Below are positions 6,766 to 58,776 of a DNA stretch of 64,000 bases, piece after piece; the stretch's first letter is position 1, and the number at the start of each line of letters is the position of its first letter. The stretch is from Candidatus Uhrbacteria bacterium (lineage in GTDB: Bacteria; Patescibacteriota; Patescibacteriia; UBA9934; GWF2-40-263), in assembly GCA_016219925.1 (NCBI GenBank), contig JACRJU010000010.1, positions 32,147 to 96,146 on the forward strand, read 5' to 3'. Under the pieces are notes generated by a model, which saw only the letters and a program-made list of their open reading frames with translations, made no database searches and had not been told where the DNA came from. A program made the translations under genes and the position numbers.

Positions 6766-7114
6766 TATGAACAAAACACACACTTTGGAACTTTTGCAAA
6801 AAACGTTTTGCCGACTTCAACCATCCTCCATTGAAGGGGTTGGGGTGTTTGCGGTCAAAGAAATCCCCGAAGGGGTCAACCCATTTGAAGGCATGCGTGA
6901 TGATTTTTTCGTCATTGAAAAAAACGGAACGGTTCGCATTCCGCAAAGCGCCCTCAACGGCATGGATATGTCCTTTTATGTTAACAACTCCGACCATCCC
7001 AACCTCACCACAACCGACGGCTTCCTGTTTATCACGAGTCGTCTCATCAAACCTGGAGAGGAATTGACTGTCGCTTACGCAATCTACGACGAAAAGTACG
7101 CCACATCCCTATGA
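6766..7114 (+). CDS. SET-domain-like small protein
   Basis: 'IEGVGVFAVKEIPEGV' and 'FYVNNSDHPN' resemble SET-domain GxG and NHxCxPN motifs. Start trimmed to the first ATG after the tRNA; the ORF track runs through the tRNA. Confidence 0.4.
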
Positions 7115-7216
7115 TCCGATTCTGGATCATCGCCATCATTTTTTGTCTGCTGCTTCTCGTTGTTTTGTACTACGCCTCGAAAGAATAGGCGGCTTGTTTT
7201 ATAATAGGAACATCCT

Positions 7217-8089
7217 ATGACGATTCGAAAAGCCATCATCCCTGTTGCTGGCATGGGCACGCGTTTTTTGCCTGCTGCCAAAGCCCAGCCAAAAGAAATG
7301 CTCCCCGTGGTCGATAAACCGATCATCCAGTATATCGTTGAAGAAGCGGTGCAAAGCGGCATCGAAGAAATCATCTTCGTCACCGCCATCGGTAAACATG
7401 CTATTGAAAACCATTTTGATCGAAACTTCGAATTGGAATACCGCCTTGAACAAAAAGGGAAACTCAAGGAACTTAAAGCCATATCGGAGATCGGCAGACT
7501 CGCCAAATTCGCCTTCGTGCGCCAATCCAAACCCCTTGGTGACGGCCATGCCGTATTAAGCGCCCTCCCCTTTCTCGATTTGCACGAACCGGTCGCGGTC
7601 CTTTTTGGCGATGACATTATCGAAGGCAAAACTCCGGCGCTCAAACAATTGATTGATGTCTATAATAAGTACGGAGATTCAGTCCTCGCGTTACAAAAAG
7701 TGCCAAAAAACATGGTGAACCAATTCGGGGTGGTGGATGGGAAAAAATTATCCAAAACAACGTGGGAGATCAGGGGCTTCGTAGAAAAACCCGACATCAA
7801 GGAAGCTCCAAGCGATTTAATCGCAATCGGACGCTATATCCTGACTCCAAACATTTACACGCTTCTGGAAAAACAAAAACCCGGCAAGGATGGTGAAATC
7901 CGTCTGGCTAACGCGTTTGAGACGCTCCTCAAAAATAACGGAGTCTTGTATGGATGCCACTTTGAAGGAACCTGGCATAACTGCGGCGATAAATTCGGAT
8001 TCGTCAAAGCGCAAATTGAACTGGGCCTTAAACATCCCGATGTTGGTCCGGCTCTCAAAAAATATTTCAAAACCATGAAACCCCTATGA
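7217..8089 (+). CDS. galU: UTP--glucose-1-phosphate uridylyltransferase
   Basis: N-terminal 'KAIIPVAGMGTRFLPAAKAQPKEMLPVVDKPIIQY' is the canonical GalU signature. Confidence 0.9.
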   Translation: MTIRKAIIPVAGMGTRFLPAAKAQPKEMLPVVDKPIIQYIVEEAVQSGIEEIIFVTAIGKHAIENHFDRNFELEYRLEQKGKLKELKAISEIGRLAKFAFVRQSKPLGDGHAVLSALPFLDLHEPVAVLFGDDIIEGKTPALKQLIDVYNKYGDSVLALQKVPKNMVNQFGVVDGKKLSKTTWEIRGFVEKPDIKEAPSDLIAIGRYILTPNIYTLLEKQKPGKDGEIRLANAFETLLKNNGVLYGCHFEGTWHNCGDKFGFVKAQIELGLKHPDVGPALKKYFKTMKPL

Positions 8090-9467: not shown

Positions 9468-10094
9468 ATGCGACGAGCTTTTGCCTTTCTGCTCATCACC
9501 CTTTCCGTTGCGGCTTTGCCGTTTGCTGGATTGGCGTACTCGAGCAACATTTGCAAAGGCCCGACCTGTGATGTCTCCGAGGTGGGACGATTTATGGAAG
9601 GGATTACGCGCGAATGTGGAAACCTGGGCAACTGCTCGATCAATGATATTTTGATGGTGTTTGCCAATGCAGGAAACTTCGCCGTCGGCATTGTGGGAGC
9701 GCTTGTGCTTCTCATGTATGTGATCGGGGGAATGTACATGCTTTCTTCAGCAGGATCTTCGGACCGAGTCGCAAAAGGAAAAAAATATCTCACCATCTCA
9801 ACAACGGGGCTCCTCATTGTCGTCTTTGCTTATATTGGCATTAAGACGCTCGAATCGGTTTTGAGAACAGCCGGAGGCGAGGGTGACTTCGTCGAGGCTT
9901 GCACCGAGTCAACGATCGGCCAGCCTTGCGGACCGTCCAAACAATGTTTTCAAGCTGATGGTGCGTCAAGTGTTTCCTGTATCTCAAACTGTGAAGCTTT
10001 TACTCCAGGGGCGAGTTGCAAAAATGCTTCAAATCCTGCATGTATTTCAGGATTATGCCCTGGAGAAGCCGTGTGTTGTCCTCCAACGCCTTAA
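9468..10094 (+). CDS. TrbC/VirB2-like pilin family paralog 1 with Cys-rich C-terminal extension
   Basis: Signal peptide, conserved two-helix core 'LLMYVIGGMYMLSSAGSSDRVAKGKKYLTISTTGLLIVVFAYIGI', then about 70 aa with at least 12 Cys. Confidence 0.55.
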   Translation: MRRAFAFLLITLSVAALPFAGLAYSSNICKGPTCDVSEVGRFMEGITRECGNLGNCSINDILMVFANAGNFAVGIVGALVLLMYVIGGMYMLSSAGSSDRVAKGKKYLTISTTGLLIVVFAYIGIKTLESVLRTAGGEGDFVEACTESTIGQPCGPSKQCFQADGASSVSCISNCEAFTPGASCKNASNPACISGLCPGEAVCCPPTP

Positions 10095-10104
10095 TCCCAT
10101 TGCT

Positions 10105-10470
10105 ATGAAACTTTTTTTAAAACGATTAACTCTCCTTCTGTGGATTTGGTCCATGCCCCTTATGGCATTCGCCGCCGACCCGGCAGAAAAAAAATTGTTT
10201 AATCCTCTTGGAACTACGAGCATTCAAGCGGTGATCGCCCGGCTCATCAAAGCTTTGCTTGGACTTAGCGGAAGCATCGCCCTTCTGATGTTTGTGTGGG
10301 GAGGATTCTTGTGGCTTAGCTCTCGAGGGGAAACCAAACAAATCGAAAAAGGGAAAGAAACCATCAAATGGGCCACTTTCGGGCTCGTTATTATTTTTAC
10401 TGCCTACATTTTGGTTGGAGCAATCATTGGTGCGCTGATAAAAGGAACAGCTGTAGAGGCCCCAAGCTAG
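10105..10470 (+). CDS. TrbC/VirB2-like pilin family paralog 2
   Basis: Signal peptide then 'WGGFLWLSSRGETKQIEKGKETIKWATFGLVIIFTAYILVGAI'. Start set at the internal ATG that gives a signal peptide. Confidence 0.55.
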   Translation: MKLFLKRLTLLLWIWSMPLMAFAADPAEKKLFNPLGTTSIQAVIARLIKALLGLSGSIALLMFVWGGFLWLSSRGETKQIEKGKETIKWATFGLVIIFTAYILVGAIIGALIKGTAVEAPS

Positions 10471-10564: not shown

Positions 10565-11023
10565 ATGACCATGGTACAGAAAAAATATCTCGGTTATGCG
10601 CTGGGAGCCGCCGTAGCCCTGCTCATTGCCGCGCCGATCGTGCTGGGAGGCGCACACAACGCTCTCGCTGCCCCCGGGCCACTTACAAAGGATGAGCTTT
10701 TCGGTGGCAAGGGTAAAACAGGCGATACATTTGCGGCAAATGCCGGACTTGGAAATGCGAACCTGATCGATACGATTTCTTCGATCATTCGCGTAGCTCT
10801 TGGTTTCCTCGGTGTGATTGCAGTGGTGATCATCCTGCTTGGTGGATTCAAGTGGATGACCTCGGGCGGAAACGATACCAAAGTTGGTGAGGCTAAAAAG
10901 CTCATCTTCGCAGGCATCATTGGATTGGTGATTGTGTTATCCGCATACGCGATCGCGAATTTCGTTATCGGCCAAATCGCGGGCGTCACCTCTAATCCTG
11001 TCCCTCCTGTCGGTGCTGGCTAA
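10565..11023 (+). CDS. TrbC/VirB2-like pilin family paralog 3
   Basis: 'LGGFKWMTSGGNDTKVGEAKKLIFAGIIGLVIVLSAYAIANFVI'. Confidence 0.55.
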   Translation: MTMVQKKYLGYALGAAVALLIAAPIVLGGAHNALAAPGPLTKDELFGGKGKTGDTFAANAGLGNANLIDTISSIIRVALGFLGVIAVVIILLGGFKWMTSGGNDTKVGEAKKLIFAGIIGLVIVLSAYAIANFVIGQIAGVTSNPVPPVGAG

Positions 11024-11105: not shown

Positions 11106-11504
11106 ATGCAACGTTTTTTCTTGCGCATCGGCGCTCCAGCGATCATCTTTCTTTTGAGCGCCCCGTCTGCTTTGGCAGAGTCCGAAGCGGCAAAAGCGCT
11201 AAAGGGCGGACTCACAGATACCGCCAAGTTGGCTGGCTACCAATCAACATCTTTGCCTGTCATCATTGGAAATGTCATCAAGGCTTTGTTGGGTGTGGTC
11301 GGTATTATTTTCCTTTTGATTACCATCTATGCCGGTATTATGTATATGACGGCCGCGGGAGATACCGGAAAAGTCGACAAAGCAAAAAAAATGCTCACGC
11401 AATCGCTTATTGGCCTGGTGATCATCATAGGCGCCTATGCCTTTGCCAATTTCGTTGTGACTCAACTGGCTGTAGCAACAACGGCGGCACCAGTAAAAAA
11501 ATAG
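11106..11504 (+). CDS. TrbC/VirB2-like pilin family paralog 4
   Basis: 'YAGIMYMTAAGDTGKVDKAKKMLTQSLIGLVIIIGAYAFANFVV'. Confidence 0.55.
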   Translation: MQRFFLRIGAPAIIFLLSAPSALAESEAAKALKGGLTDTAKLAGYQSTSLPVIIGNVIKALLGVVGIIFLLITIYAGIMYMTAAGDTGKVDKAKKMLTQSLIGLVIIIGAYAFANFVVTQLAVATTAAPVKK

Positions 11505-11505
11505 T

Positions 11506-11901
11506 ATGAAAACCTTTTCAAGATGGCTGCTCATCGGAATATTTGTCTTGCTTCCAGTTTCTGCCTGGGCCGGCCTTCTTGATTCGCAACTAAGTACCGT
11601 AGGCAGTCAATTAGGAAAAGACGGTGGGGTCCCAACGAGTCTCCCCGTATTTATCGGTGGACTCATTAATGTCGTTTTATCGGTTCTTGGTCTCGTCTTT
11701 CTCGTTCTCATCGTGTATGCTGGATACATGTGGATGACGGCTTCAGGCGATTCAACCAAAGTTGATAAGGCCAAAAAACTTATTGGACAGGCTCTCATCG
11801 GCATGATCATTGTTATCGCTTCCTATGCGATCAGCGCGTTCGTGATCGACCGAATTTCAGGCGCAATTACGGTAGCGCCGGCGGCAGCCCCCACAAAATA
11901 A
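11506..11901 (+). CDS. TrbC/VirB2-like pilin family paralog 5
   Basis: 'YAGYMWMTASGDSTKVDKAKKLIGQALIGMIIVIASYAISAFVI'. Confidence 0.55.
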   Translation: MKTFSRWLLIGIFVLLPVSAWAGLLDSQLSTVGSQLGKDGGVPTSLPVFIGGLINVVLSVLGLVFLVLIVYAGYMWMTASGDSTKVDKAKKLIGQALIGMIIVIASYAISAFVIDRISGAITVAPAAAPTK

Positions 11902-11923: not shown

Positions 11924-12316
11924 ATGAAAAATCTCTACTACACTTTCAGCGCCTGGATTTCCGTCTTGGGCCTGTCGCTTTTGCCGGCAAGCGCCATGGC
12001 TCAACTTAAACCATCAACAGATGCGGCGAGTGATCTTGGTAAGATCGGCAAGAAACTCGGCAACGAGACTCCAAACGATCTTCCAAACCTCATTGGCGGA
12101 CTCATCAACATGTTCCTTTCGATTCTCGGCATCGTCTTTGTGGTGCTGGTGATCTATGCCGGATACCTTTGGATGACGGCATCTGGCGACGCTACTAAAG
12201 TTGATAAAGCCAAAAAACTGCTTGGCCAGGCCATCATTGGAATCATCATTATTGTGGCGGCCTACGCGATCAGCACGTTCGTTATTAATAGGATCGTCGG
12301 AGCGGTTAAACCGTAG
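11924..12316 (+). CDS. TrbC/VirB2-like pilin family paralog 6
   Basis: 'YAGYLWMTASGDATKVDKAKKLLGQAIIGIIIIVAAYAISTFVI'. Confidence 0.55.
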   Translation: MKNLYYTFSAWISVLGLSLLPASAMAQLKPSTDAASDLGKIGKKLGNETPNDLPNLIGGLINMFLSILGIVFVVLVIYAGYLWMTASGDATKVDKAKKLLGQAIIGIIIIVAAYAISTFVINRIVGAVKP

Positions 12317-12328
12317 ATTTAAAAAAGG

Positions 12329-12356
12329 CAGAGCCGCGAGGCTCTGTTTTTATTTT
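12329..12356 (+). terminator. Rho-independent terminator after the pilin paralog array
   Basis: Hairpin cagagcc-gcga-ggctctg followed by tttttatttt. Confidence 0.6.
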
Positions 12357-12414
12357 GAAAATAAACATCCCCTGACCGACTCCACGTGAGGTGGATATCG
12401 ACCAGGGGATAGGA

Positions 12415-13344
12415 TCAGCGCTTCCACCCGTTAGTGGCGTGGGTGATGCGCCGATCAAGGCTCTCGACGCGGTCGAGTTCGACCCGGACCGCGTTGCCCC
12501 ACAGAGTCTGGGGCGGCAGGCCGGGGATCTCGACCAGACTGCCGGTCGGAGCCAGGTAGATGATCTCGATGCGGTCGCGTGGGCCGACCGCCGAGATATA
12601 GAGCTCGTCGTAGGCGGCCGGGGCGACCGCGCTGTACGGGGTGCGGTCCGGACGACCGTCCCCATCGAGATCGGCGTAGACCGTCTCGATCGAGCCATCC
12701 GCATTGCCGATCGGGATGGCAACCCCGTTGCGCTTCACGAGAACCCGCGAGAATTGGGGGTTTCGGTGGGTGTGCCAGCTGACCCCACTGGCAAGCCCGA
12801 AGACTTGCAAGTAGGGGCCAACCACCTCGAAGGTCGTGGCGGCGTATGCCCCTGGGGTCGGGATGACCCTGTAGGGCGCGCCACCGACCATCATCGTGGA
12901 CGGTGGTAGGCCTGCGGGCGGACGGTGGTAGGCCTGCGGCTCGGCTGGTTGAGCCTTGCCGTCCTTCGCCTTCCGATCGCGGAGCGTCCGAAGACGCGCC
13001 TTGATCTGCTGCCTGGCTGTGCCAGCGGCAGGCAGCTCCGGCTGCTTGGCGTCCGGCACTGCCTGCTGGGACGCGAGCTTGGCTTTGGTCGCCTCGAGCT
13101 CCTGACGGAGCCGATCGACTTCGGCCTTGAGCCCGCTCTCGCCGGCTTTGAGCCGCGCCTCCAGGATCTTCACGTTCTGATCCTGGATGCACAGCAGTTG
13201 CTTGAGGCGGGCACTCGAGTCGGTTCCGGCGTAGCGGGCCTCGCAGAATGCGACGGCCTGCTTCGCTTCCTTCGACTCTTCAGCGTGCAGGGTGGCGGGG
13301 ACGAACAGGAACAGGGCGGCCGCGATGGCCATTTCGAACTTCAT
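12415..13344 (-). CDS. Secreted coiled-coil protein of unknown function (high-GC island 1)
   Basis: Signal peptide 'MKFEMAIAAALFLFVPATLHA', a coiled-coil stretch, then a C-terminal domain of unknown family. Strong GC-rich third-position bias. Antisense ORFs in the same region are Arg/Pro/Gly-rich junk. Confidence 0.5.
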   Translation of the reverse strand: MKFEMAIAAALFLFVPATLHAEESKEAKQAVAFCEARYAGTDSSARLKQLLCIQDQNVKILEARLKAGESGLKAEVDRLRQELEATKAKLASQQAVPDAKQPELPAAGTARQQIKARLRTLRDRKAKDGKAQPAEPQAYHRPPAGLPPSTMMVGGAPYRVIPTPGAYAATTFEVVGPYLQVFGLASGVSWHTHRNPQFSRVLVKRNGVAIPIGNADGSIETVYADLDGDGRPDRTPYSAVAPAAYDELYISAVGPRDRIEIIYLAPTGSLVEIPGLPPQTLWGNAVRVELDRVESLDRRITHATNGWKR

Positions 13345-13419
13345 GGATTTCTCCTTGTGGTCGGACGTGCCGACCGTCTTCGTCTTTCGAGACGGCCGGC
13401 ACGGACCACCCGAGCCGAC

Positions 13420-14055
13420 CTACTTGCGGTGAACTCGGAGGAGCTCGTTGAGGTCGCGGCGGTTGCACGCCGCTTCCTCTGCGGGGTTGGCGGGCGGGCG
13501 ACCACCAGGGCACTGGCTCGTGCTCGCGGGCGCGAGCGCTTGCGGAGGTGGCGGGCCGTAGTAACCCGGGGCGACCGCTTCACCGAGCGGCGGGAGGTAG
13601 CCTCTGGCTCCTGCCCGCCATCCAGCCTCGATCATGGTCGTCTCCTGGCTGGCTCCCGGATAGTAGACAGCCTGACCGTACGGCCCGTAGCCGCCGGCGG
13701 CGTAGGGGTAGGCCCCCATGCCGTACGGCCCGTAAGCGCCGTAGTAGCCCGTGTACCCGGAGGTCACCTGACCTCCGCGGGTGCTCACCTGCGTGGGCAC
13801 CCCCTTGTCAACCGACGCGCGGGCCGTTGCGGCCGCGCGCTCGGCCGCATCGCCGTCATGACGCGTACGCTCGAGCTGGTCGGCGGCGGCAAGGAGCGCT
13901 GCCGCTCCCCCGGTGGTGGCCAGATCCTGGTGGACCTGGACCGAACCGATGACCCGACCGCTTGCGTCGGTGAGGTCGCGCTTGAGCGCGACGCTCGCGC
14001 ATCCCGTGAGGGCGGCGAGCACGATGGCGAGGATGGTCTTCATCTGCTTCTCCAT
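13420..14055 (-). CDS. Lipoprotein with Gly/Tyr-rich repeat region (high-GC island 1)
   Basis: Lipobox 'LAALTGC'. Low-complexity 'YTGYYGAYGPYGMGAYPYAAGGYGPYG'. Same strand and same composition as the downstream gene. Confidence 0.5.
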   Translation of the reverse strand: MEKQMKTILAIVLAALTGCASVALKRDLTDASGRVIGSVQVHQDLATTGGAAALLAAADQLERTRHDGDAAERAAATARASVDKGVPTQVSTRGGQVTSGYTGYYGAYGPYGMGAYPYAAGGYGPYGQAVYYPGASQETTMIEAGWRAGARGYLPPLGEAVAPGYYGPPPPQALAPASTSQCPGGRPPANPAEEAACNRRDLNELLRVHRK

Positions 14056-14210
14056 GTCGACTCGCCTGCGGCTGCCGACTCAATTGCCCTGAAAAGGACG
14101 GTTTGTCCCAATTTGGGAACGTAGAAATATACCATAAAATTGCCTTTTTGTCAATAAATCCAACGAAAAAACGCCCTTTTAGGACGTTTCCTCAAACATT
14201 TAAAAACGGG

Positions 14211-15497
14211 CTAACGCAAGTATCCCCAATTATGCAAAAGATCCGAATCTCTCTCCCAACGGTCCCCGATATCCGTGCGGTAATACATATTAGGCACCAT
14301 GACGTTTTGCACACGGTTATACACCTGTTGTTGGGCGGCCTTCATCGTGGCCCCAGTCCCGGCAACCGTCATCACCGCCCCGGCATGCCCAGCCACAACC
14401 CACTGACCGTTTAACACTTTCACCTCCTCAATATGAATCCCATCAAGCGTGTTGCGGCGCAGATAAATCGCGGCATCTTTTGAGTACGTTTCAAATGCTT
14501 TATGGTCATCAAACGGATATGGCGGCGTGCGCAAACGGACTCCGACCTGGAACCCTTTTTTTGTTTTGATCGCAAAGCTCTCACGATTGGCTAGCCGATA
14601 GAGGAGCTCGGACATGGGCATGAGCAGTCCCTCGTGCTGGATCGAAATCGTCGGGTAACCAAAACGGCTTGTGAACTCAAGCGGATAAATGCCGTTCCCG
14701 TTGACGATACAGTTAAGATCGAAGTAGCCAACATATCCCTCGCGCGAAAGCGTCTCTTCCATTTTTAGAAGCGTGGCGTTGAACAATCGGTTGGGCTCGG
14801 ACCAATACATGGACGTTCCCATTTCCCCAGTCGAGATCCCGAGGTTCCCAGGAAATAATTTTTTGTGCTCAAAGTTGATGTTAATCGGGGACAAAAACCG
14901 ACTGCCATTAAAGAACGCTCCAACGGCCACTTCCACACCGGAAACGTGTTTTTGTAGTTGAAACACTTTGATCTTTTTAAGCCACACCCGCTTATACGCC
15001 TCCATAATGCCAATGACATCACTGCCGTCGTCTTCCGTACCGACAAATAGAAGGCGTTTGAGGTTGGCCGCCTCGCCGCTTGGCTTGAACACATAGCGTC
15101 CGGGATGCGCGCGGACATATGCAATGGCCTCATCAAAATCCGCGAAGGTTTGATAAGACAAAATCGGAATGCCATGCTTTTTAAGCTCTTCTTGACCAAA
15201 ACCGCGATCATCTTCGAGCTGGTCGGTGTAAGCCGTCCCTCCGATCACCGCTTTGCCGGTGCGGCGCAGACGATCCGCTTTGGCTCCCAAGCCAAGCACA
15301 TCGTCAAACACAACCACATCTGCCCAATCCACCTCCTTCTTCCAATCCTCTACCTTTTCGATGAGCCCATCGCCGACGTCCTGTGACGCATCAGAGTCAA
15401 CGTACATCTTCACGCGGTGACCCTCACGACTCACCTGCCAGGCTACATCGACACACAAGGCATCGAGTGTGACAAACAAAAAATTTTTCGAGTCCAT
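14211..15497 (-). CDS. ATP-grasp enzyme, phosphoribosylamine--glycine ligase (PurD)-like
   Basis: 'YVFKPSGEAANLKR', 'GYVGYFDLNCIVNGNGIYPLEFTSRFGYP' parallel PurD 'IVIKADGLAAGKG...GFLYAGLM...KVIEFNCRFGDPE'. Host-like GC. Confidence 0.5.
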   Translation of the reverse strand: MDSKNFLFVTLDALCVDVAWQVSREGHRVKMYVDSDASQDVGDGLIEKVEDWKKEVDWADVVVFDDVLGLGAKADRLRRTGKAVIGGTAYTDQLEDDRGFGQEELKKHGIPILSYQTFADFDEAIAYVRAHPGRYVFKPSGEAANLKRLLFVGTEDDGSDVIGIMEAYKRVWLKKIKVFQLQKHVSGVEVAVGAFFNGSRFLSPININFEHKKLFPGNLGISTGEMGTSMYWSEPNRLFNATLLKMEETLSREGYVGYFDLNCIVNGNGIYPLEFTSRFGYPTISIQHEGLLMPMSELLYRLANRESFAIKTKKGFQVGVRLRTPPYPFDDHKAFETYSKDAAIYLRRNTLDGIHIEEVKVLNGQWVVAGHAGAVMTVAGTGATMKAAQQQVYNRVQNVMVPNMYYRTDIGDRWERDSDLLHNWGYLR

Positions 15498-15532
15498 ATA
15501 TGTTGGTCATTATAGACGCATGAAAATGGAAG

Positions 15533-15591
15533 TCAAAAAATTCTGTAAAAGAAAACGACGGCAGCAATCCTTGGGAAGGAAAGCTGCCGTC
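15533..15591 (-). terminator. Rho-independent terminator downstream of the island-2 gene (minus strand)
   Basis: On the minus strand, 9-bp stem gacggcagc/gctgccgtc is followed by a T-rich run. Confidence 0.5.
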
Positions 15592-15599
15592 AGAAGCGG

Positions 15600-17600
15600 C
15601 TACTTGCAGCCGAAGGCCTGACGACCTTCATAGCTAAGCGCCGCGCAGTCGACTCCGTTGGTGTGCGTGTGCGGCTTGGAAGCCGAACGCGCGCTGGACG
15701 AAGTCGGGGGCGTCGTGGCGAAGGGGTCCATCGTGTGGTGACCCACGAACCACGGAACGCTCACCGCGACCATGAGTGCGCAGAGGAAGACCGCGAGGTG
15801 GCCCACCAGGGGGTTACTCCCTTGAGTCACGTTCAGGATCGATCCTGACTGCACCCGTGTCTGTGCGAGCCGGCGCACGAGCCAGTACCCGGGCAGGTAC
15901 ACGAGCGTGAAGAGGACCGCGCTCGCAACCCACTGATGAGTCCCGAGGAAGCTGAGGCTTGCACCCCAGGCCGCGACAGTCGCGCCCCAGACGGCTTGCG
16001 GCCATCCGTGACGGATCATCCAGTCTGCGGCGATGATCCCGATCGTCACCAGCCACCCGTACTGCGCGCCCCGAAGAGCAAGCAGTTGGGCCTTGGCCGG
16101 CGCGCCCGCGACCTTGAAGCCCATCCCGATGCACACGCCGACGAAGGCGAGGCCCAGGATGACGACGCGTGCGCTGAGCGACACACCGACCTCCGGGATG
16201 AGGCCCAGAGCGATCAGGTACGCCGGCATCAGCATGAAGGTGAACCTCCAGCCGAATTCGGCGAGCCAATCGGCGGGCCACCCGAGCACACTGACAACCA
16301 GGGGGTGGAGCAGACGCTGCCAGATCCGCAGCGTAAAAAACATGATGATCAGCACCGTCGCGCAGATGATCGCGCGCAGGCTGTGGTACATGCTCGGGGC
16401 ACTGAAGAGGCTCGAGAGCATCCACCAGAACGCCGTGAGGAACATCACCACGGTCGCCAGGTTGAACACCACGATCCCGACCGCCGAGCCGTAGAGCAGG
16501 GCTTTGAGGGTCCCGCTCATGGCGCCGCGGTTGTGCCAGGCGCTCGAAGCGCCGCGCAGGGCCTTGTGCCAGAGCGTGAGCTCCGCACCCAAGGCCGTGT
16601 CGAACGCGGCGATGATGTCGTCGAGATCTTCGGGGTTGAACCGGTCCTCGGGGGTCGCACGCGGATTGTAGTACTCCGCGAGCGTCCTGAGAAACGGCAC
16701 GCCCTTCTTGTCGACGACGTCCTTGACGATGTCCTCGCGCAGGGCGTACTGCAGGGCCGTTCCCTGCCGCACGCTGCGGCTGATGAGCAGGAAGAAGCGC
16801 CGAACCTCGGGTCCGACCGCCTCCCACCACTCGGCGGGCTTCCTCAGAAGACCCTCGAGGATCTTGAGCTCTACGGCGCTGACGCGCTGGGTATCCCCCA
16901 TCTGCGCGATCGCTTCCGCGAGCTTCAGGACCTCGTGCGGGAAGGACTCGGCCGGCACACGCTCGGTGCGAGGCTGTTGGCCCTTGCCACCGCCGACCTG
17001 CTTGGTCGTGGCTTTGTGGGTGTCATCCCAGACGCTCTTGTAGAGCGCCCAGGTCGGATCCAGGATGACGGGCACCTGGTCGGCACCCACCCGAATCTTG
17101 CCGTCAGAGTCCCGGGCCGGAACGAAGATCTTACCCGGAACGAGCCGGCTGACAACAACCCAGTCAAGAGTCTGGTTGGCATCAGCGTCTGCGACGCCGG
17201 GGTCGGAGCGGGCCGCGTCGACCTCGCGATCGATCTGGCTCGCGGCATCCGCGTACCCGGTGAACACGCCCAACAGGGCGTGTGGGCCAACCTCCTTGAG
17301 GAGGAGCTTGGCCTCGCGAACGACCGGACGGGTGTCGCCCGGAAGAATCCGCTCGACGAAGTCGCTCTTCTTGAGCAAGGCCGCGACGGCCGAGCCCGCG
17401 AGTGGGAGGGTGAACCCGGGCATGGTGCGCGCCAGGGCCATGACCGGCCCGGCCGCTCCGAAGATGCCCTTGAGCGACCGCTTGGCGATCGCCTTGCCGG
17501 ACTCTCCAGCACCCGCACCCTCGGTGAGCTCGCGCTCGAGGTGCTGGTGCACGGCCTGTTCGGCGGCCTCTTCGGCCATCAATCGAAGAAACTCGTTCAT
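15600..17600 (-). CDS. Large polytopic membrane protein of unknown function (high-GC island 2)
   Basis: 666 aa. A soluble N-terminal domain of about 350 aa is followed by about 7-9 hydrophobic helices. GGAG RBS upstream. Very GC-rich. Confidence 0.5.
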   Translation of the reverse strand: MNEFLRLMAEEAAEQAVHQHLERELTEGAGAGESGKAIAKRSLKGIFGAAGPVMALARTMPGFTLPLAGSAVAALLKKSDFVERILPGDTRPVVREAKLLLKEVGPHALLGVFTGYADAASQIDREVDAARSDPGVADADANQTLDWVVVSRLVPGKIFVPARDSDGKIRVGADQVPVILDPTWALYKSVWDDTHKATTKQVGGGKGQQPRTERVPAESFPHEVLKLAEAIAQMGDTQRVSAVELKILEGLLRKPAEWWEAVGPEVRRFFLLISRSVRQGTALQYALREDIVKDVVDKKGVPFLRTLAEYYNPRATPEDRFNPEDLDDIIAAFDTALGAELTLWHKALRGASSAWHNRGAMSGTLKALLYGSAVGIVVFNLATVVMFLTAFWWMLSSLFSAPSMYHSLRAIICATVLIIMFFTLRIWQRLLHPLVVSVLGWPADWLAEFGWRFTFMLMPAYLIALGLIPEVGVSLSARVVILGLAFVGVCIGMGFKVAGAPAKAQLLALRGAQYGWLVTIGIIAADWMIRHGWPQAVWGATVAAWGASLSFLGTHQWVASAVLFTLVYLPGYWLVRRLAQTRVQSGSILNVTQGSNPLVGHLAVFLCALMVAVSVPWFVGHHTMDPFATTPPTSSSARSASKPHTHTNGVDCAALSYEGRQAFGCK

Positions 17601-17776
17601 CTCTATCTCCTGTGCGGCTCTTGGCCGCGCAATGGGTTTGGAACACGTGAAAAGGGCGAAAAAAACCTTTTCTCCAATGCGCGTTGCCGCACACAGAAGG
17701 GACTTTTATATCATATTTCGGCCGTTTTGTCAACGGCCAATGACTCATTTTTCTTAAATTCCTTCATAAGTCACCC

Positions 17777-17851
17777 AGTGGGTAATAAGAGATTTGTGAC
17801 CTTGTCTTCGGGCCGACGGACTCATCGCCGTCGTTCCCTCCGACATGGTCA
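17777..17851. repeat. 75-bp palindromic element with perfect 15-bp terminal inverted repeats
   Basis: aagagatttgtgacc (17777-17791) and ggtcacaaatctctt (17837-17851) are exact reverse complements. The spacer holds an internal cgacgg/ccgtcg stem. Confidence 0.6.
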
Positions 17852-17979
17852 CAAATCTCTTTAGGGCTGTGAAGAATAAACGAGTCACAGCCAGTGGGGA
17901 GGCGGCCATGGGGCCCCCACTGACCTTCTCTTTGTGGGCTTCAAGCGAACCCAAGCGGGTGGTCGAAAAGACAAAAGGG

Positions 17980-19152
17980 TTATTTGAATTCAGACGCACG
18001 ACGCTTCTCCTGAATCATTTTGGTTATAATCGGCCGATCGGTGTTGCGCCCGACAAGCACGGCGCCAATAAGCTGGCCTGCCCGAGAAAAAAGTTGTGTG
18101 ATGCCTCCCTGCTCAACCGAACCCACCAACCGAACTTCATCGGCATGCGCGCGCGACACATCACCCACAAAAATAATTTCCAAACCAAGAGCGTTTGTGG
18201 CGTAAGAAGAAACCAAAGAGAACACAGTCTTCTCCCCAGCCATATTCTTTGCCACCACACGTCCCTGCATCTGCGCATTCATCCAGTTACCCACGCGCAC
18301 ATGACGGCCAACATTGATATCGTAAAACTCGGCCACATCGCCAGCCGCAAAAATGTTTGGCTCTGATGTCTGTAAAAATTCATCACACACGATGCCCGCC
18401 TCAACCTTCACTCCTGCTTCGCGCAACCATCCATCATCCGATTCGATCCCAATTCCCACTCCAAGAATGGTGCAAGGATGCTCACCGAGCGAACTGATAA
18501 ATCCGGTGAGTTCGCGCTCCCCCATGGTATCGACAAAAAGTCCGCCCGGATGGAGCTCAACACCCTTCTTGATTAAATGTTGATTGATAAGACGCCCCAC
18601 TTCGGGCTCGAGCCCTTTAGACCAAAAATGGTTTCCTCGAAAAATAACGGTTGTCGGGATCCCAAAATGGGCAAACAAGTTGATGTACTCACAGGCGATA
18701 AACCCACCGCCGTAAACGCCGCCACGGCAAGATGATCCCTGCTCGGCAAGTAGTTGATTCAAATGATCCGCGTCATCAAGCGTACGTAAATAAGAGACAC
18801 CGCGCACATCCAATCCGAGAGTACGCAGTTCGCCTCCGGTTGCGATGAGTAGTTTGTCATAGGGGAGTTCGCGGCCATCTGAGAGTTCGACGAAGGTATT
18901 TTTCGGGTCCAGTTTTACAACCGAAATTCCGCGCACCCACTCAATCTTTTGTTCTTCATACCACGACTCTTTCTTCAAAAAGACCCGCTCGCGCGGAATT
19001 TTCCCTTTCAAATAATGCGGCAACAGCACCCGCGAATAGAGGGCGTGCTGTTCCTCACTCACAAGCGTAATCTCATCGCTGGAATCGAGCTTGCGCAATT
19101 CTTCCACGGCCGTTGTTCCGGCAATGCCTCCGCCGATGATGAGATAGCGCAT
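17980..19152 (-). CDS. FAD-dependent pyridine nucleotide-disulfide oxidoreductase (ferredoxin/rubredoxin reductase-like)
   Basis: 'MRYLIIGGGIAGTTAVEELRK' is a Rossmann GxGxxG fold with two dinucleotide-binding regions. Start trimmed to the internal ATG at 19152. Confidence 0.75.
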   Translation of the reverse strand: MRYLIIGGGIAGTTAVEELRKLDSSDEITLVSEEQHALYSRVLLPHYLKGKIPRERVFLKKESWYEEQKIEWVRGISVVKLDPKNTFVELSDGRELPYDKLLIATGGELRTLGLDVRGVSYLRTLDDADHLNQLLAEQGSSCRGGVYGGGFIACEYINLFAHFGIPTTVIFRGNHFWSKGLEPEVGRLINQHLIKKGVELHPGGLFVDTMGERELTGFISSLGEHPCTILGVGIGIESDDGWLREAGVKVEAGIVCDEFLQTSEPNIFAAGDVAEFYDINVGRHVRVGNWMNAQMQGRVVAKNMAGEKTVFSLVSSYATNALGLEIIFVGDVSRAHADEVRLVGSVEQGGITQLFSRAGQLIGAVLVGRNTDRPIITKMIQEKRRASEFK

Positions 19153-50539: not shown

Positions 50540-51313
50540 CTACGTTTTGAGAAGTTGATCAATAGCCGCTGATACAGAGCTGTATGGGAGAGCTCCTTTG
50601 ATCGGGATCGCGTTGCCATCTTTGTCGATGATGAAAGACCCGGGGGTTCCGTTCACTCCTGCGTTTGCGCCATCTTGGGACTGTTGTTGGATCTTTCCGT
50701 CATACTTGCTTTTGCGGTAGCAGTCTTCCCATTGGTTGACGTTCAGACCAAGCTTGCCGGCAAGCTGTTTGTAGTACGCATCGGATTCAGAATCTTGATT
50801 CGCGAAAAGATCATCTGCAAATTCCCAGAATTTCCCCTGCTCGGATGCACACTCCGCGGCGTTGGCGGCTGGAAGAGCGTTGGGATGAAATGACAATGGG
50901 AAATGTCGGTAGATCCAGCGCACTTTTCCATCGTAATTTTTCATGACTTGTTGCATGGTGGGATGAAAATTTTGACAGAACGGACACTGGAAATCGGAGT
51001 ATTCAATAACGGTGATCGCGGCATCTTTTGCCCCGCGGATATGATCCGCATCTGTGACAACTGGGACGGCTGTGGGCTCGGGAGTTGGGATAGTTGTTGG
51101 ATCCGTGACTCCAGCGTCAGCCACGGCTCCCGCGGCGGATGGGGCTTTCAAACCGAGATTGATTGTCCCCCCTTTGAGTATTTGGGTGCCGAGAATGATG
51201 AATCCAACCGTGCACAGGACAAGAATGGCGGTCACGAAACCAAGCCAGAATGCACTTTTGGCATTCAAGACATCAAAAAGAGATGAGGGTTTGTTGGGTG
51301 AGAGTTGATCCAT
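50540..51313 (-). CDS. DsbA-like thioredoxin-fold thiol:disulfide oxidoreductase, membrane anchored
   Basis: N-terminal transmembrane anchor and a 'CPFC' active site. Confidence 0.7.
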   Translation of the reverse strand: MDQLSPNKPSSLFDVLNAKSAFWLGFVTAILVLCTVGFIILGTQILKGGTINLGLKAPSAAGAVADAGVTDPTTIPTPEPTAVPVVTDADHIRGAKDAAITVIEYSDFQCPFCQNFHPTMQQVMKNYDGKVRWIYRHFPLSFHPNALPAANAAECASEQGKFWEFADDLFANQDSESDAYYKQLAGKLGLNVNQWEDCYRKSKYDGKIQQQSQDGANAGVNGTPGSFIIDKDGNAIPIKGALPYSSVSAAIDQLLKT

Positions 51314-51796: not shown

Positions 51797-52720
51797 ATGA
51801 AATCTCTTCAAGCCTTTATCACGGATTTTTTGGAATATCTGGAAGTCGAGCGTGGTCGCAGTGCGCGGACGATTCGCAACTACGATTTTTATTTGCGCCG
51901 GTTTGCGCAGTTTGCTGGAAATATCCTTCCACCAAAGATTACGCGTGAAACCGTTCATCGCTATCGGTTATTTTTGAATCGTCTGGAACAAGGCCGTCAA
52001 GAAGTGACGCTCAAAAAAAGTACGCAGAATTATCATCTCATTGCCTTGCGCTCATTTTTGAAATATCTTTCGCGTCATGATGTTGCGAGCCTGCCCGCTG
52101 AACAGATCGAACTTGCCAAGCAGTCTAAGCGCACCGTGGATTTTCTCGAAGCTGATGAACTTGCCCGACTGTTGGCGATGCCGCAGAAAATCCATTCCGG
52201 TTTGATCGCCCTGCGTGACAAAGCGATTTTGGAGTTGTTGTTTTCCGCAGGTTTGCGCGTGAGCGAACTCACCGGACTCAAGATCGAGCAGATCAATCTC
52301 AAACGTGATGAGTTTACCGTGCGCGGCAAAGGCGACAAGCCGCGGCTGTGCTTTTTGTCTGATTCGGCAAAAGAAGCCATCAGAGGCTATCTTGAGAGAC
52401 GCCGCGATCCTTCACCGTTTTTGTTTGTTTCTCATGATCGGGCCAAAAGTGGTCGTAAAGACGGCGGACCACTCACCCCTCGCTCAGTTGAACGCTCGGT
52501 TGAACACTATGCGGTGAGCGCTGGCATCACAAAAAAAATTACTCCTCATACGCTTCGTCATACTTTCGCTACGGATTTACTCATGAGCGGCGCGGATATT
52601 CGTTCGGTGCAGTCGATGCTCGGGCATGAATCCATTACGACAACTCAGGTTTACACCCACATCACGAACAGCCAGATGAAGGAAGTTCACAAACGGTTTC
52701 ATGGGAAACAAAAGAGTTAG
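51797..52720 (+). CDS. Tyrosine recombinase XerC/XerD family
   Basis: 'ARDKAILELLFSAGLRVSEL', 'HTLRHTFATDLLMSGADIRSVQSMLGHESITTTQVYTH'. Confidence 0.85.
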   Translation: MKSLQAFITDFLEYLEVERGRSARTIRNYDFYLRRFAQFAGNILPPKITRETVHRYRLFLNRLEQGRQEVTLKKSTQNYHLIALRSFLKYLSRHDVASLPAEQIELAKQSKRTVDFLEADELARLLAMPQKIHSGLIALRDKAILELLFSAGLRVSELTGLKIEQINLKRDEFTVRGKGDKPRLCFLSDSAKEAIRGYLERRRDPSPFLFVSHDRAKSGRKDGGPLTPRSVERSVEHYAVSAGITKKITPHTLRHTFATDLLMSGADIRSVQSMLGHESITTTQVYTHITNSQMKEVHKRFHGKQKS

Positions 52721-52858: not shown

Positions 52859-53194
52859 ATGATCGACCTGACAGCCGCTACCTTCGACGGGGTCGTCAAG
52901 AAACACCCCGTCATTCTCGTCGACTTCTGGGCGGCTTGGTGTGCACCTTGCCGCGCCATGATGCCGGTCATCAGTGGGCTCGCGGAGGCCATGCCCGATC
53001 TGGTGATCGGCAAGGTCGACATCGACCCCGAGCTCGAGTTGGCGACGCGCTTTAGGATCAGCGCGATCCCCACGCTCATGTTCATCGTCGAGGGACACGA
53101 GGTTGCGCGCCTCACTGGGGCCACGTCGTTGCCCAAGCTCATCGCTTGGGTGCGCGAGCACCAGGGCGCCGTGGAGACGAACCCGAACACGTAG
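52859..53194 (+). CDS. trxA: Thioredoxin (high-GC island 3)
   Basis: 'VDFWAAWCAPCRAM', 'SAIPTLMF'. GGAGAGG RBS. About 65% GC. Confidence 0.8.
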   Translation: MIDLTAATFDGVVKKHPVILVDFWAAWCAPCRAMMPVISGLAEAMPDLVIGKVDIDPELELATRFRISAIPTLMFIVEGHEVARLTGATSLPKLIAWVREHQGAVETNPNT

Positions 53195-54245: not shown

Positions 54246-55226
54246 ATGGCACACGTGACCCATCGCGATCTGCTCTTTCCCATCGTCGTGAAGTTCTGGG
54301 GGGTCCGCGGATCCTTCCCGACCAGCGACGTCCGGATCGGCGGGCACACGACATGCCTGACGCTCCAGTTCCCCGACCAACTCATCATCTTCGACACGGG
54401 TTCGGGGATGATCGACCTTGGCAACCATCTGCTCGAGCCGGCGCTCGTGCCTGGAACGACCCTCAAAGACATCGAGGTGTTCACCAAGGTCTGGCTCGGC
54501 CAGACTGGCAACAAGCCCGAGGATCTCGGGCGCGCTCTGCAGGAGCGGTTCCAGGGCAAGAACGGCGGGGTCAACGCGACCGTGATCCACAGCCACGTCC
54601 ACAAGGATCACCTCGACGGGCTCACGGCGTTCAAGCCCGTGTTCCGTCCGGACACGGAGCTCACCTTCATCGGCTCGCGCCACAATGATCTGACGATCGA
54701 GCAGGTCATGGAGCGCTTCGTGTTCACCCCGCCGGTGTTTCCGGTGCCCTGGAAGGTCCTGGGGTCGAGGCGCACCATGCGCGAGATCGCTCCGTCGGGC
54801 GACACCTTCACGATCCCCTGCGCGGTCGGCGACGACATCCGTGTGCGGATGCTGCCGATGAACCACCCCAACCAAGCCTACGGGTACCGGTTCGAGTGGG
54901 GCGGTCGTGTGATCGCGGTCACGCTCGACCACGAGCACGGTCACGACTTCGACCGCAACGTCGTCGAGCTCGCGGACAACGCCGACCTGTGGATCACCGA
55001 GGCGCAGTACACCGATGCGCAGTACGCGCGGTGCAAGGGCTTCGGCCACATCAGCGAGACCGCGGCCGCCGCGCACGCCAAGGCGGCCAAGCCCCGGCTC
55101 GTCTACACGACCCACCACGATCCGGACGCCGGCTTCGACGATGTCCAGCAGATCGCGCGCACCATCCAGGAGTTCTCGGGCGTCGAAGCTCGGTACGCCT
55201 GGCAGGGTAGCGAGGTCCACGTCTGA
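54246..55226 (+). CDS. MBL-fold metallo-hydrolase (high-GC island 4)
   Basis: 'VIHSHVHKDHLDG' HxHxDH motif, plus downstream His/Asp ligands. AGGGAGG RBS. Confidence 0.7.
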   Translation: MAHVTHRDLLFPIVVKFWGVRGSFPTSDVRIGGHTTCLTLQFPDQLIIFDTGSGMIDLGNHLLEPALVPGTTLKDIEVFTKVWLGQTGNKPEDLGRALQERFQGKNGGVNATVIHSHVHKDHLDGLTAFKPVFRPDTELTFIGSRHNDLTIEQVMERFVFTPPVFPVPWKVLGSRRTMREIAPSGDTFTIPCAVGDDIRVRMLPMNHPNQAYGYRFEWGGRVIAVTLDHEHGHDFDRNVVELADNADLWITEAQYTDAQYARCKGFGHISETAAAAHAKAAKPRLVYTTHHDPDAGFDDVQQIARTIQEFSGVEARYAWQGSEVHV

Positions 55227-56411: not shown

Positions 56412-56488
56412 TGGTGGCCCGGGAGGGACTTGAACCCCCAACCCTGTGCTTAGAACGCACCTGCTCTATCCAGTTGAGCTACCGGGCC
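56412..56488 (-). tRNA. tRNA-Arg (anticodon TCT, tentative), encoded CCA
   Basis: Reverse complement ggcccgg...ccgggcc-a-cca. D-arm gctc/gagc, anticodon loop gtTCTaa with one G·A at the stem end, T-loop ttcaagt. Confidence 0.65.
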
Positions 56489-57173: not shown

Positions 57174-57249
57174 GGCGGCCATGGTGAAACGGTTATCACA
57201 GCAGGTTGTGGTCCTGTCGTTACGGGTTCGATTCCCGTTGGCCGCCCCA
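57174..57249 (+). tRNA. tRNA-His (anticodon GTG) with encoded G-1 and CCA
   Basis: G-1 + gcggcca...tggccgc-c-cca. Anticodon stem gcagg/cctgt with loop ttGTGgt. T-arm acggg-ttcgatt-cccgt. Confidence 0.75.
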
Positions 57250-57322: not shown

Positions 57323-57423
57323 ACGGGTACGATGCTTGAAGTGAGCGAGCGGAGAGGCCGAGCGGAGCTCGGACTATCCCGAGCGAGCGAGAGCAATATG
57401 GGCGCCAGCCCATATTCCCGTTG

Positions 57424-57447
57424 GCCGCCCCACAAAATAGACCCCAG
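57424..57447. repeat. Direct repeat of the tRNA-His 3' end (att-like), embedded in a long hairpin
   Basis: attcccgttggccgccccaca-aaa matches 57231-57251. Forms cccgttggcc...ggccaacggg (57427-57489) enclosing acaaaatagacccca/tggggtctattttgt. Confidence 0.6.
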
Positions 57448-57694
57448 CATGCTGGGGTCTATTTTGTTTGGCCAACGGGAGGTGAAGGGGGCATGTCTCT
57501 TTTCTCTTCATTCTATCCACACTTGACACCATTTTTTCCTTCAGGCATACTTCTGCGGGTCTGCTTGTGAGGTGGCTATTTCAGCCAAAATTGCAGGCAT
57601 CCCGGCTGGCCGGATAGCCAGAGCCAGGCCAAACCGGATCGGTTTCCGGAAAGGCCAAACACCAGAAGCCCCAATGGGGCAACAGAGGCTACAG

Positions 57695-58732
57695 ATGAGG
57701 AACCTGTTTCAGATCGCGGTGGAGAATCTCGGCATCGAGAAGCGTCGCGTCGACATCAACGGCGTCACCGTCACGGCCATCAAGGGCTCGCCCGACAACA
57801 TCGCGCGGGTCATCGGCACCGCCCTGCGCGAGGAGCAGTACGACCTCAGCAACCTGATCGGCATGGGCATCTCCCGCGACGGGCAGATCCACCTGATCGG
57901 CTTCGACCCGGACAACGGCGGCAAGATCTCCAAGGCCGAGCTGCCCGAGAACGAGCTCGGGGGGCTCTACCTCGACGGCTTCGACTATGCGCACTTCGTC
58001 GGCTCGATGAAGGACGGCATCGTCGTCAGCGCGTTCGCCAAGGGCGTCCAGGCGACCCCGCAGAAGGGCCAGGCGCTGGACACCTTCGTCAAGGCCGTCT
58101 TCGCGGACGGCAACGTCATCGGCGCCGAGGACACCACCAACACGGTGCTGCTCATCGGCCGCAAGGGCGACCGCGTGCTGTTCGCGCTCGACACCGAGAA
58201 GCCGGACCTGTTCATGCAGGTGACGACGCCGCAGATGATCGGCGAGCCGCGCTACGCGCTGGTCGACCAGCAGACGCTGCTCATCGCCGAGGCCGGGACC
58301 GACCAGGTCTACGCCACCACCGCGCAGGAGCTCAAGACGCTCTTCGAGACCGGCGTGGAGCCGACCTGGCAGATGGCCGCGCTCAAGGGCCTCAGGATCG
58401 AGGACATCTCGCTCGGCATCGGCGACACCAACACCGTGATCGTCACCGCCATCCAGGGCCGCCAGCGCAAGCTGATCCCGACCTGGGCCGGCTGGAAGCC
58501 GACCAATGAGGGCGAGCAGAAGTTCCTCATGAACCCCAGCTACGCCGACGGCGTCGAGTCCGGCACGACCGCCCCGATCGTCCGCACCACGAGCAGCACC
58601 TACGTCGCGGTCGACGGCAACGGCGGCACCTTCCCGCGCCTCACCATCGGGACGCCCGAGGACATCAACCACCGCCTCGCGGTCATGGTCAAGAAGGCCG
58701 AGACCGGCGGCTACGCCAACCTGGCCCTGTAG
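57695..58732 (+). CDS. Hypothetical protein, 345 aa (high-GC island 5), family not recognised
   Basis: Coherent ORF with GC-rich third-position bias and a GAGG RBS. Start set at 'MRNLFQ'; the ORF track runs from 57572, but that start is read as a GTG alternative. Antisense ORF is Arg/Gly/Ala junk. Confidence 0.5.
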   Translation: MRNLFQIAVENLGIEKRRVDINGVTVTAIKGSPDNIARVIGTALREEQYDLSNLIGMGISRDGQIHLIGFDPDNGGKISKAELPENELGGLYLDGFDYAHFVGSMKDGIVVSAFAKGVQATPQKGQALDTFVKAVFADGNVIGAEDTTNTVLLIGRKGDRVLFALDTEKPDLFMQVTTPQMIGEPRYALVDQQTLLIAEAGTDQVYATTAQELKTLFETGVEPTWQMAALKGLRIEDISLGIGDTNTVIVTAIQGRQRKLIPTWAGWKPTNEGEQKFLMNPSYADGVESGTTAPIVRTTSSTYVAVDGNGGTFPRLTIGTPEDINHRLAVMVKKAETGGYANLAL

Positions 58733-58776
58733 GCCGCCCCCCCACAACGTCAGCGCACACTCGCGCTGACACGCTC

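Follow-up and report, generated by a model that had tools for sequence, protein, structure and literature searches.

A GC-rich, rapidly evolving set of three putative envelope protein genes beside a pilin array in Candidatus Uhrbacteria

Does a sharply bounded block of GC-rich DNA record a recent arrival, or can such a block belong to the lineage that carries it, and what might its genes do there? The question is raised by two minus-strand genes in a 64,000-nucleotide chromosomal stretch (hereafter the window) from a metagenome-assembled genome (MAG) of Candidatus Uhrbacteria, a member of the candidate phyla radiation (CPR; Patescibacteria). One is a lipoprotein gene (LP) and the other the gene of a 309-aa secreted protein (CC; HZA85_01655 in NCBI, on a 145.5-kb contig); a polytopic membrane protein gene (TM) lies upstream and shares their composition. 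A preliminary description, made from the window alone, regarded the composition of the LP–CC pair as foreign. The most unusual result of the present analysis is that these vertically inherited genes keep a stationary GC-rich dialect. The features on which the argument rests are as follows (GC1, GC2 and GC3 denote GC content at the first, second and third codon positions).

12415–13344, minus strand: CC, secreted protein, 309 aa
13420–14055, minus strand: LP, lipoprotein, 211 aa from the first ATG
15600–17600, minus strand: TM, third partner, 666 aa, GC3 0.85
14126–14154, minus strand: putative sigma-70-type promoter of the LP–CC operon, TTGACA-17-TATATT with TG extension, 11 of 12 consensus matches
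13357–13410, minus strand: intercistronic stem-loop, about 24 bp, −45.6 kcal/mol, z = −4.3
12367–12411, minus strand: putative intrinsic terminator of the LP–CC operon, 20-bp hairpin, −41.7 kcal/mol, z = −5.95

A GC-rich block at a conserved locus

From about 12400 to 14090 the GC content is 0.65–0.73, against 0.45–0.49 outside, and it returns to background within about 100 nt; the genome around the block is about 49% GC overall. GC1/GC2/GC3 are 0.72/0.58/0.82 for LP and 0.69/0.49/0.82 for CC, compared with about 0.58/0.38/0.52 for normal genes, and GC3 across LP, CC and TM is 0.82–0.85 versus about 0.5 in the window. The shift affects all three codon positions, in proportions that typify a genome of about 66% GC, and every amino acid favours G- or C-ending codons: lysine is encoded by AAG in 92% of cases (24% in normal genes) and phenylalanine by TTC in 89% (34% in normal genes). 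The GC-rich zone coincides with the transcribed region, with GC of 0.35–0.53 in the promoter-bearing spacers and 0.51–0.65 in the internal one. Two adjacent genes, a jump in GC and sharp borders, as first described, are thus confirmed.

LP and CC are real genes rather than chance open reading frames (ORFs), since they have orthologues in at least 14 loci and a ratio of nonsynonymous to synonymous substitution rates (dN/dS) of 0.12–0.17 in the closest pair. Three plus-strand ORFs that face the GC-rich genes (12391–12909, 12925–14124 and 15936–17864) are long, at 172, 399 and 642 codons, and might be taken for the true genes or for additional overlapping ones. However, an antisense frame stays open wherever TTA, CTA and TCA codons are avoided, and it is the minus-strand frames that show the conservation, the pattern of indels and the dN/dS below 1. 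The plus-strand ORFs were rejected as codon-aligned antisense of GC3-rich genes, their GC1 of 0.80–0.82 mirroring the sense GC3 of 0.82, and we give their coding status practically no credence.

The signals around LP and CC indicate one operon, running from promoter through LP, intercistronic hairpin and CC to an intrinsic terminator. The predicted promoter lies in the AT-rich spacer upstream of LP, and the arrangement TTGACAaaa…TGgTATwTT, after a terminator, recurs in the TM–LP spacer of relatives L008, L011, L012, L016, L022 and L023. The LP–CC spacer is 75 nt long; its stem begins after the LP stop codon and ends just 5′ of the CC Shine–Dalgarno sequence (AAGGAG), and stable stems of unrelated sequence occupy the equivalent spot in L002, L004, L008, L009, L012, L016, L022 and L023. 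On the minus-strand RNA the terminator hairpin directly follows the CC stop codon and precedes the U-tract UGUUUAUUUU. This hairpin is the palindrome noted earlier at 12376–12412; the palindrome is real, although at 12367–12411, and it is a terminator rather than a scar at the left boundary. An Rfam scan of 12000–18000 gave no match. The leaders of the operon vary: in L016 a palindromic element of about 250 nt precedes the promoter in the TM–LP spacer (6915–7356 of that locus), and in L022, L023 and L008 long hairpins of non-conserved sequence lie in the 5′ leader downstream of the promoter, while the leader of LP in the window is of unexceptional structure (z = −0.97).

LP–CC occupies the same place in no fewer than 14 loci, which come from different genomes and samples, and the two genes, whose co-occurrence in other genomes had been proposed as a test, are found together as one operon everywhere that the family occurs. 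The loci fetched for comparison (L002–L023) derive from metagenomes, of groundwater among other sources, and from several MAGs, and include the most distant members. Every one has the gene order Aminotran_5–NifU–Fer4–Pyr_redox–TM–LP–CC, followed by a convergent array of five or six T4SS_pilin genes, SBP and NTP_transferase. All five distant members with fetched context share this CPR synteny, and none was found outside it. The identity matrix of CC is congruent with that of Pyr_redox (Spearman rho 0.81) and shows the same clades; vertical inheritance therefore follows. Gene order and matrices together indicate that the LP–CC operon is native to Uhrbacteria, old and vertically inherited.

Deviant GC content is routinely read as foreign DNA, and the recent arrival of a foreign island, or else contamination or chimeric assembly with DNA of a high-GC organism, would be consistent with sharp borders, 65–73% GC and GC3 of 0.82 within a 49% GC genome, and with codon usage that deviates for every amino acid. 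Another GC-rich island of the window, moreover, adjoins tRNA-His and is accompanied by repeats of the tRNA 3′ end. Yet the LP–CC junctions are reproduced exactly in an independent Logan assembly, the same mosaic recurs in the at least 14 loci of other samples, including all five distant members, and the phylogeny agrees with the one given by the flanks. The block itself shows no integrase, tRNA gene or flanking repeats, being flanked by terminators and a promoter. Its only apparent repeats, 12-nt direct copies of ATTTAAAAA[A/C]GG at 12317 and 14198, were rejected as an insertion scar: both are terminator A-tracts, and every relative shows the locus in synteny. The block thus resembles genomic islands in its sharp bounds and its deviant composition and codon usage, but differs from them in its conserved synteny, congruent phylogeny, lack of mobility genes and att repeats, and a composition that is at equilibrium rather than decaying; neither mobility signatures, nor a patchy or incongruent distribution, nor a donor was found. 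A recent foreign source is accordingly very improbable. Conserved synteny, saturated flanks, congruent matrices and GC-richness in every lineage speak against the foreign composition first proposed, and the high-GC contaminant that the preliminary description had envisaged as its refuting case is contradicted by the Logan junctions and the syntenic loci.

Two of the relatives, L009 (CAYMBX010000022.1) and L013 (CAYHRJ010000050.1), combine the full Uhrbacteria synteny and GC mosaic with the MAG title 'uncultured Gammaproteobacteria bacterium', and are probably mis-binned or mislabelled. GC-mosaic blocks of this kind can mislead binning as well as detectors of horizontal gene transfer.

Protein evolution and base composition

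The three genes evolve faster than their surroundings. When the window is compared with its nearest relatives, protein identity is 70–86% for the flanks but 40–53% for TM, LP and CC. The nonsynonymous rate (dN) between the window and L002 is 0.48–0.50 for the three genes and 0.09–0.24 for the flanks, a difference of 2–5 times, and in the closest pair (L004 versus L008) their dN/dS of 0.12–0.17 compares with 0.03–0.09 for the flanks. TM, LP and CC are therefore subject to purifying selection, but in a relaxed or diversifying regime. Near-identical loci differ by only 0–6 single-nucleotide polymorphisms.

The compositional offset accompanies the genes in every lineage. Their GC3 is about 0.55–0.87 across lineages, over backgrounds of 0.27–0.72, and exceeds that of the neighbours by 0.13–0.40 in all loci, whatever the background. 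Examples of GC3 for TM, LP and CC and for their neighbours are:

L023: TM/LP/CC 0.77–0.83; neighbours 0.35–0.51
L022: TM/LP/CC 0.72–0.78; neighbours 0.47–0.64
L016: TM/LP/CC 0.80–0.84; neighbours 0.67–0.72
L004, L008: TM/LP/CC 0.55–0.63; neighbours 0.27–0.37

Whether this composition was inherited or is held can be addressed at four-fold degenerate sites of conserved residues, where mismatches between weak (W; A or T) and strong (S; G or C) bases were counted for the window against each other genome and compared with the expectation from independent draws. Synonymous sites of the flanks are saturated (pS 0.72–0.83), and their W/S mismatch of 0.44–0.52 is close to the expected 0.47–0.54, with a residual correlation of 0.00–0.09 (0.23 for L009). 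TM, LP and CC behave in the same way: observed mismatch is 0.31–0.35 against an expected 0.30–0.39, and GC content at four-fold sites (GC4) is 0.68–0.85 in both partners when the window is compared with mid-GC genomes. Third positions have turned over fully and GC4 is nevertheless high; GC-richness is therefore an equilibrium of each lineage, not a relic of transfer. It is a stationary property of TM, LP and CC, held rather than inherited.

An ancient transfer into the ancestor of Uhrbacteria, with the GC-richness a fading, unmaintained relic that is still ameliorating, would suit the shift of all three codon positions towards a genome of about 66% GC. In the low-GC clade (L004/L008/L014/L015), parsimony counts, which involve small numbers and parsimony bias, give 48 S-to-W against 31 W-to-S changes and a crude equilibrium GC3 (GC3*) of 0.53, below the current 0.63; taken at face value this would point to a decaying relic, but the counts are too noisy to establish an equilibrium in that clade. 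However, the four-fold sites of the three genes differ between lineages as far as composition allows while GC4 in the mid-GC comparisons is still 0.68–0.85; over the turnover recorded by the saturated flanks a relic should have reached background; and the GC3 offset persists on backgrounds from 0.27 to 0.72. We consider an ancient transfer improbable, if somewhat less so than a recent one.

The GC-rich dialect would, on the preferred reading, be actively maintained, either through GC-biased fixation or through selection that acts on these transcription units. Vertically inherited genes that hold GC3 0.13–0.40 above their genome imply that strong local GC-biased fixation, or selection on composition, must act on single bacterial transcription units. 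Candidate causes are GC-biased gene conversion, if diversifying selection makes these loci recombine frequently, selection for properties of the mRNA, and a mutation or repair bias specific to the transcription unit. Sharp borders at transcription-unit ends fit conversion tracts less easily, and the shift at all three codon positions, which fits directional GC pressure, fits codon-level selection less easily; the internal non-coding LP–CC spacer is GC-rich too. Ordinary translational selection is disfavoured because normal genes that are likely to be highly expressed (pilins, PPase, PNPase) are not GC3-rich. A comparable situation is known from GC3-bimodal gene sets ascribed to GC-biased gene conversion, in grasses and in recombining bacterial genes: there, too, a subset of fast-evolving genes keeps a far higher GC3 across speciation, but in Uhrbacteria the boundaries are sharp and match transcription units. 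To our knowledge, the GC3 offset of TM, LP and CC is far above any reported in bacteria, and no report of such GC-rich gene sets in CPR bacteria was found in the literature searched. A more speculative idea, to which we would give about one chance in four, is that Uhrbacteria keep a functional second 'codon dialect' for a few genes, either as the footprint of sustained recombination or gene conversion targeted to host-contact loci or as a means of controlling expression through mRNA stability or a distinct pool of tRNAs or tRNA modifications, and that the three genes form an undescribed host-contact apparatus.

The three proteins

LP probably starts at its second ATG (14043), which has a GGAG Shine–Dalgarno sequence and gives a 207-aa product that matches the Logan gene call. 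The N-terminus has an MK-hydrophobic signal peptide and the lipobox LTGC (MKTILAIVLAALTG/C); this lipobox and the Gly/Tyr-rich stretch quoted in the preliminary description are both present, the Gly/Tyr-rich core being limited to part of the family. Judged by the pattern [LVI][ASTVI][GAS]C alone, LP qualifies as a bacterial lipoprotein, that is, as a substrate of Lgt and LspA, neither of which turned up in a Pfam scan of 36 window proteins. The lipobox cysteine is invariant among 12 aligned members; distant members have LAGC, LSGC or MSGC, and some are relaxed at positions −3/−1 (SNGC, TSNC). Cys19, Cys182 and Cys197 vary little or not at all, and further conservation is seen in a KGxPT…GGQVTSG segment, PGASPEMxxIE, LPPLG and a C-terminal CPxDRxPxxxAExxAC helix. 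LP has no Pfam or NCBIfam match, and hhalign comparisons of LP with CC and with TM revealed no internal homology.

CC consists, in order, of a signal peptide, a helical region (25–128), a variable Pro-rich linker and a beta-rich C-terminal domain (165–309). The 309-aa length and signal peptide stand as first described: the peptide appears cleavable (…ATLHA/EES), and its motif is conserved as A-x-A/Q in most homologues. The heptad-like coiled coil survives in part, as a helical region, but the AlphaFold2 model resolves it into four helices of 13–24 residues rather than a single long coil; an invariant pair, Cys34…Cys52, lies within it. The model has a mean pLDDT of 79.6, rising above 90 over the C-terminal domain, which carries a conserved YADLDGDGRPD loop (Y-A-D-L-D-G-D-G-x-P-D) of the calcium-binding DxDxDG type. 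The loop gives a single weak match to Pfam FG-GAP_3 (15.9 bits against a cut-off of 26.9). With a score below the gathering threshold and the loop motif alone, without repeated blades, CC does not qualify as an FG-GAP/VCBS repeat protein, and the multi-repeat proteins P0096 and P0115, in the tail of the CC profile search, match it at the loop only. Foldseek against the PDB returned nothing at E < 0.02 for the CC model (best E = 0.02, TM-score about 0.15); a single BFVD match (E 5.5e-4, probability 0.23, TM-score 0.11) was discounted for its poor quality. The C-terminal beta domain, although confidently modelled, thus has no matching fold in the PDB or BFVD. In the CC linker, 20 nt are repeated directly and without mismatch at a period of 22 nt (12898–12917 and 12920–12939). 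Translation passes through the two copies in different frames (PQAYHRP, PAGLPPS), which suggests that a frame-shifting duplication was tolerated or compensated in the variable linker.

TM begins with a domain of about 360 aa that contains neither cysteine nor a signal peptide, followed by 7–9 hydrophobic segments and a Pro/Ser/Thr-rich C-terminal tail that ends in the conserved Cys pair CxxLSxxxRxxxGC. It is 670–750 aa long in relatives, stands always directly upstream of LP or, in the clade of the window, with only a PurD-like gene between, and has the same synteny, GC-rich dialect and fast evolution as LP and CC. No member has a Pfam or PDB match, and neither TrbL/VirB6 nor FtsX was matched. 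Conserved position and shared behaviour indicate that TM, LP and CC are a lineage-specific three-gene set. The preliminary description had proposed an undescribed extracytoplasmic two-component module; export signals, the absence of recognisable domains and co-occurrence bear this out, except that TM makes a third member. The PurD-like ATP-grasp gene (14211–15497, minus strand; GARS_A and GARS_C) is of normal GC content, has its own promoter and terminator, and lies between TM and LP in the window, L002 and L009 alone, the two being adjacent in the other relatives. This insertion kept the background composition while both of its neighbours kept the GC-rich one.

Family searches revealed no known relatives, in agreement with the earlier statement that neither protein of the pair has a recognisable domain: library, PDB sequence and CC fold searches were all empty. 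LP, CC and TM gave nothing above threshold in Pfam, NCBIfam, PHROGs or PADLOC, and profiles built from the family alignments gave nothing below E = 0.029 against PDB chain sequences. No chain of VirB5, VirB6, VirB7 or VirB9 appeared in the PDB at E <= 10, and no TrbL/VirB6, VirB9/CagX or VirB5 match in Pfam at E <= 1. The three proteins showed no domain of a toxin, hydrolase or adhesin, and nothing spoke for or against the toxin delivery mentioned in the preliminary description; viral contigs yielded no relative of either CC or LP. A word-seeded search of 5.8 billion proteins recovered 16 CC-family clusters and 11 LP proteins, and an exhaustive CC profile search of 1.84 billion proteins recovered 96 cluster representatives, nearly all full-length (270–360 aa). 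All family members found are named 'hypothetical protein' in the databases.

Possible roles beside the pilin array

The LP–CC operon converges on an array of six genes for VirB2-like type IV secretion system (T4SS) pilins, all with PF18895 matches and normal GC content, and the same array adjoins CC wherever a locus reaches far enough.

9468–10094, plus strand: VirB2-like T4SS_pilin gene
10153–10470, plus strand: VirB2-like T4SS_pilin gene
10565–11023, plus strand: VirB2-like T4SS_pilin gene
11106–11504, plus strand: VirB2-like T4SS_pilin gene
11506–11901, plus strand: VirB2-like T4SS_pilin gene
11924–12316, plus strand: VirB2-like T4SS_pilin gene
12329–12346, bidirectional: terminator hairpin with A- and T-tract flanks, closing the convergent pilin array

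The first pilin (208 aa) is extended at its C-terminus by about 70 aa, 11 of them cysteines (…CTESTIGQPCGPSKQCF…CCPPTP), a stretch that has no counterpart in its paralogues. Patescibacteria are known to carry arrays of VirB2-like pilin genes, and in the single cultured species tested these are essential for epibiotic growth; neither an adhesin nor a VirB7-like lipoprotein has been assigned to this pilus system (PMC12102498). An accessory role at the pilus is therefore attractive for the three proteins.

LP, CC and TM most likely constitute a disulfide-stabilised, calcium-binding surface module beside the VirB2-like pilin array, a reading suggested by their sequence features and position. All three products would act outside the cytoplasmic membrane, with LP tethered through its N-terminal lipid, CC forming a disulfide-stapled helical stalk with a calcium-binding beta-sandwich head, and TM exposing a disulfide-looped C-terminal tail. 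An extracytoplasmic, oxidising location is supported by the conserved Cys pairs in the three proteins together with a DsbA-like gene in the window: a minus-strand gene at 50540–51313 encodes a DsbA-like thioredoxin-fold protein (PF13462, PF01323), consistent with disulfide formation in exported proteins. Together they may form a surface complex where membrane or wall meets the environment, the host or phages, and such exposure could account for their fast evolution; the complex may also cooperate with the adjacent pilus genes. A surface-contact role has, in our estimate, slightly better than even prospects, and so has the preferred reading as a whole, in which a native operon of maintained GC-richness encodes a surface complex; a specific link to the pilus is tentative and, on balance, unlikely. 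CPR bacteria are presumed to spend their lives on hosts, and hardly any of their surface machinery has been described, so that a conserved, strongly promoted and fast-evolving three-protein envelope set is a concrete candidate.

Several points temper this reading, in addition to the parsimony counts of the low-GC clade. No homology or fold match backs any particular function of LP, CC or TM. The topology of TM is a hydropathy estimate alone, and the AlphaFold2 model of LP is mostly disordered (pLDDT 49) and too poor for a fold search. Neither VirB4 nor VirB6 is among the large ORFs of the window (at least 640 aa, all scanned). Synteny extends over the whole region beyond the pilin junction, and the pilin and LP–CC units are convergent rather than co-transcribed; because the entire region is syntenic, proximity to the pilins lends little support to a functional link. 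Finally, the dialect is not specific to envelope proteins, since a thioredoxin and a metallo-β-lactamase-fold (MBL-fold) protein in GC-rich islands elsewhere in the window are probably cytoplasmic.

It is also possible, with a probability of little more than one in four, that the three genes form a housekeeping module of the envelope or cell wall that is unrelated to the pilus or to host contact (a scaffold that spans the wall, or a division or remodelling factor of the FtsX–EnvC/PcsB kind) and that their position by the pilins is incidental. Adjacency is uninformative in so syntenic a neighbourhood, the LP–CC promoter is strong and conserved, and a signal peptide, helical region and C-terminal globular domain recall EnvC, PcsB and RipC. 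PrgA of pCF10, like these three, has a signal peptide, helical stalk, linker, C-terminal globular domain and membrane partner. CC, however, has no CAP, LytM, CHAP or NlpC/P60 domain in Pfam, nor such a fold, and neither FtsE nor FtsX accompanies it; moreover, protein evolution 2–5 times faster than that of neighbours would be unusual for core envelope machinery.

A more specific role, which we hold to be unlikely at around one chance in five, is that the proteins are divergent analogues or homologues of T4SS accessory subunits serving the VirB2-like pilus, with LP as VirB7, CC as VirB9 or VirB5, and TM as VirB6. The adjacency to the array is constant, and the features in common with the VirB proteins are a small, fast-evolving lipoprotein and a signal-peptide protein of about 300 aa, both with conserved cysteines, and a polytopic membrane partner, at a site beside VirB2-type pilin genes. 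VirB7 and VirB9 are joined by inter-subunit disulfides, and the conserved cysteines of LP and CC could do likewise. Nevertheless, the searches gave no VirB5, VirB6, VirB7 or VirB9 chain and no TrbL/VirB6 family, no fold match to VirB9 or VirB5 was obtained for CC, and similarity to VirB7–VirB9 is lacking at the level of sequence, profile and fold alike. The N-terminal half of CC is helical, LP is four times longer than VirB7, the missing VirB4 and the convergent, separate transcription of the units have been noted, and the organism, as a CPR bacterium, has a T4SS of the monoderm type, without VirB7 and VirB9 (PMC12102498).

Other genes around the block have ordinary housekeeping roles, among them those for PolA, PNPase, H+-PPase, PBP1, NifU/cysteine desulfurase and ABC transporters. 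Three further GC-rich islands of the window consist of single genes:

52859–53194, plus strand: thioredoxin, GC3 0.83
54246–55226, plus strand: MBL-fold protein, GC3 0.90
57572–58732, plus strand: 386-aa protein without family or PDB match, GC3 0.94

PDB matches of the three proteins gave no indication of a donor. Near the last of them lie a tyrosine recombinase gene (51797–52720) and tRNA-Arg (56412–56488). The last 22 nt or so of tRNA-His (57175–57249) are repeated 183 nt downstream (57414–57435) and recur more weakly (13/15) at 58726–58740, the end of the GC3 0.94 gene, in an att-like bracketing. This island, unlike LP–CC, may have been horizontally acquired.

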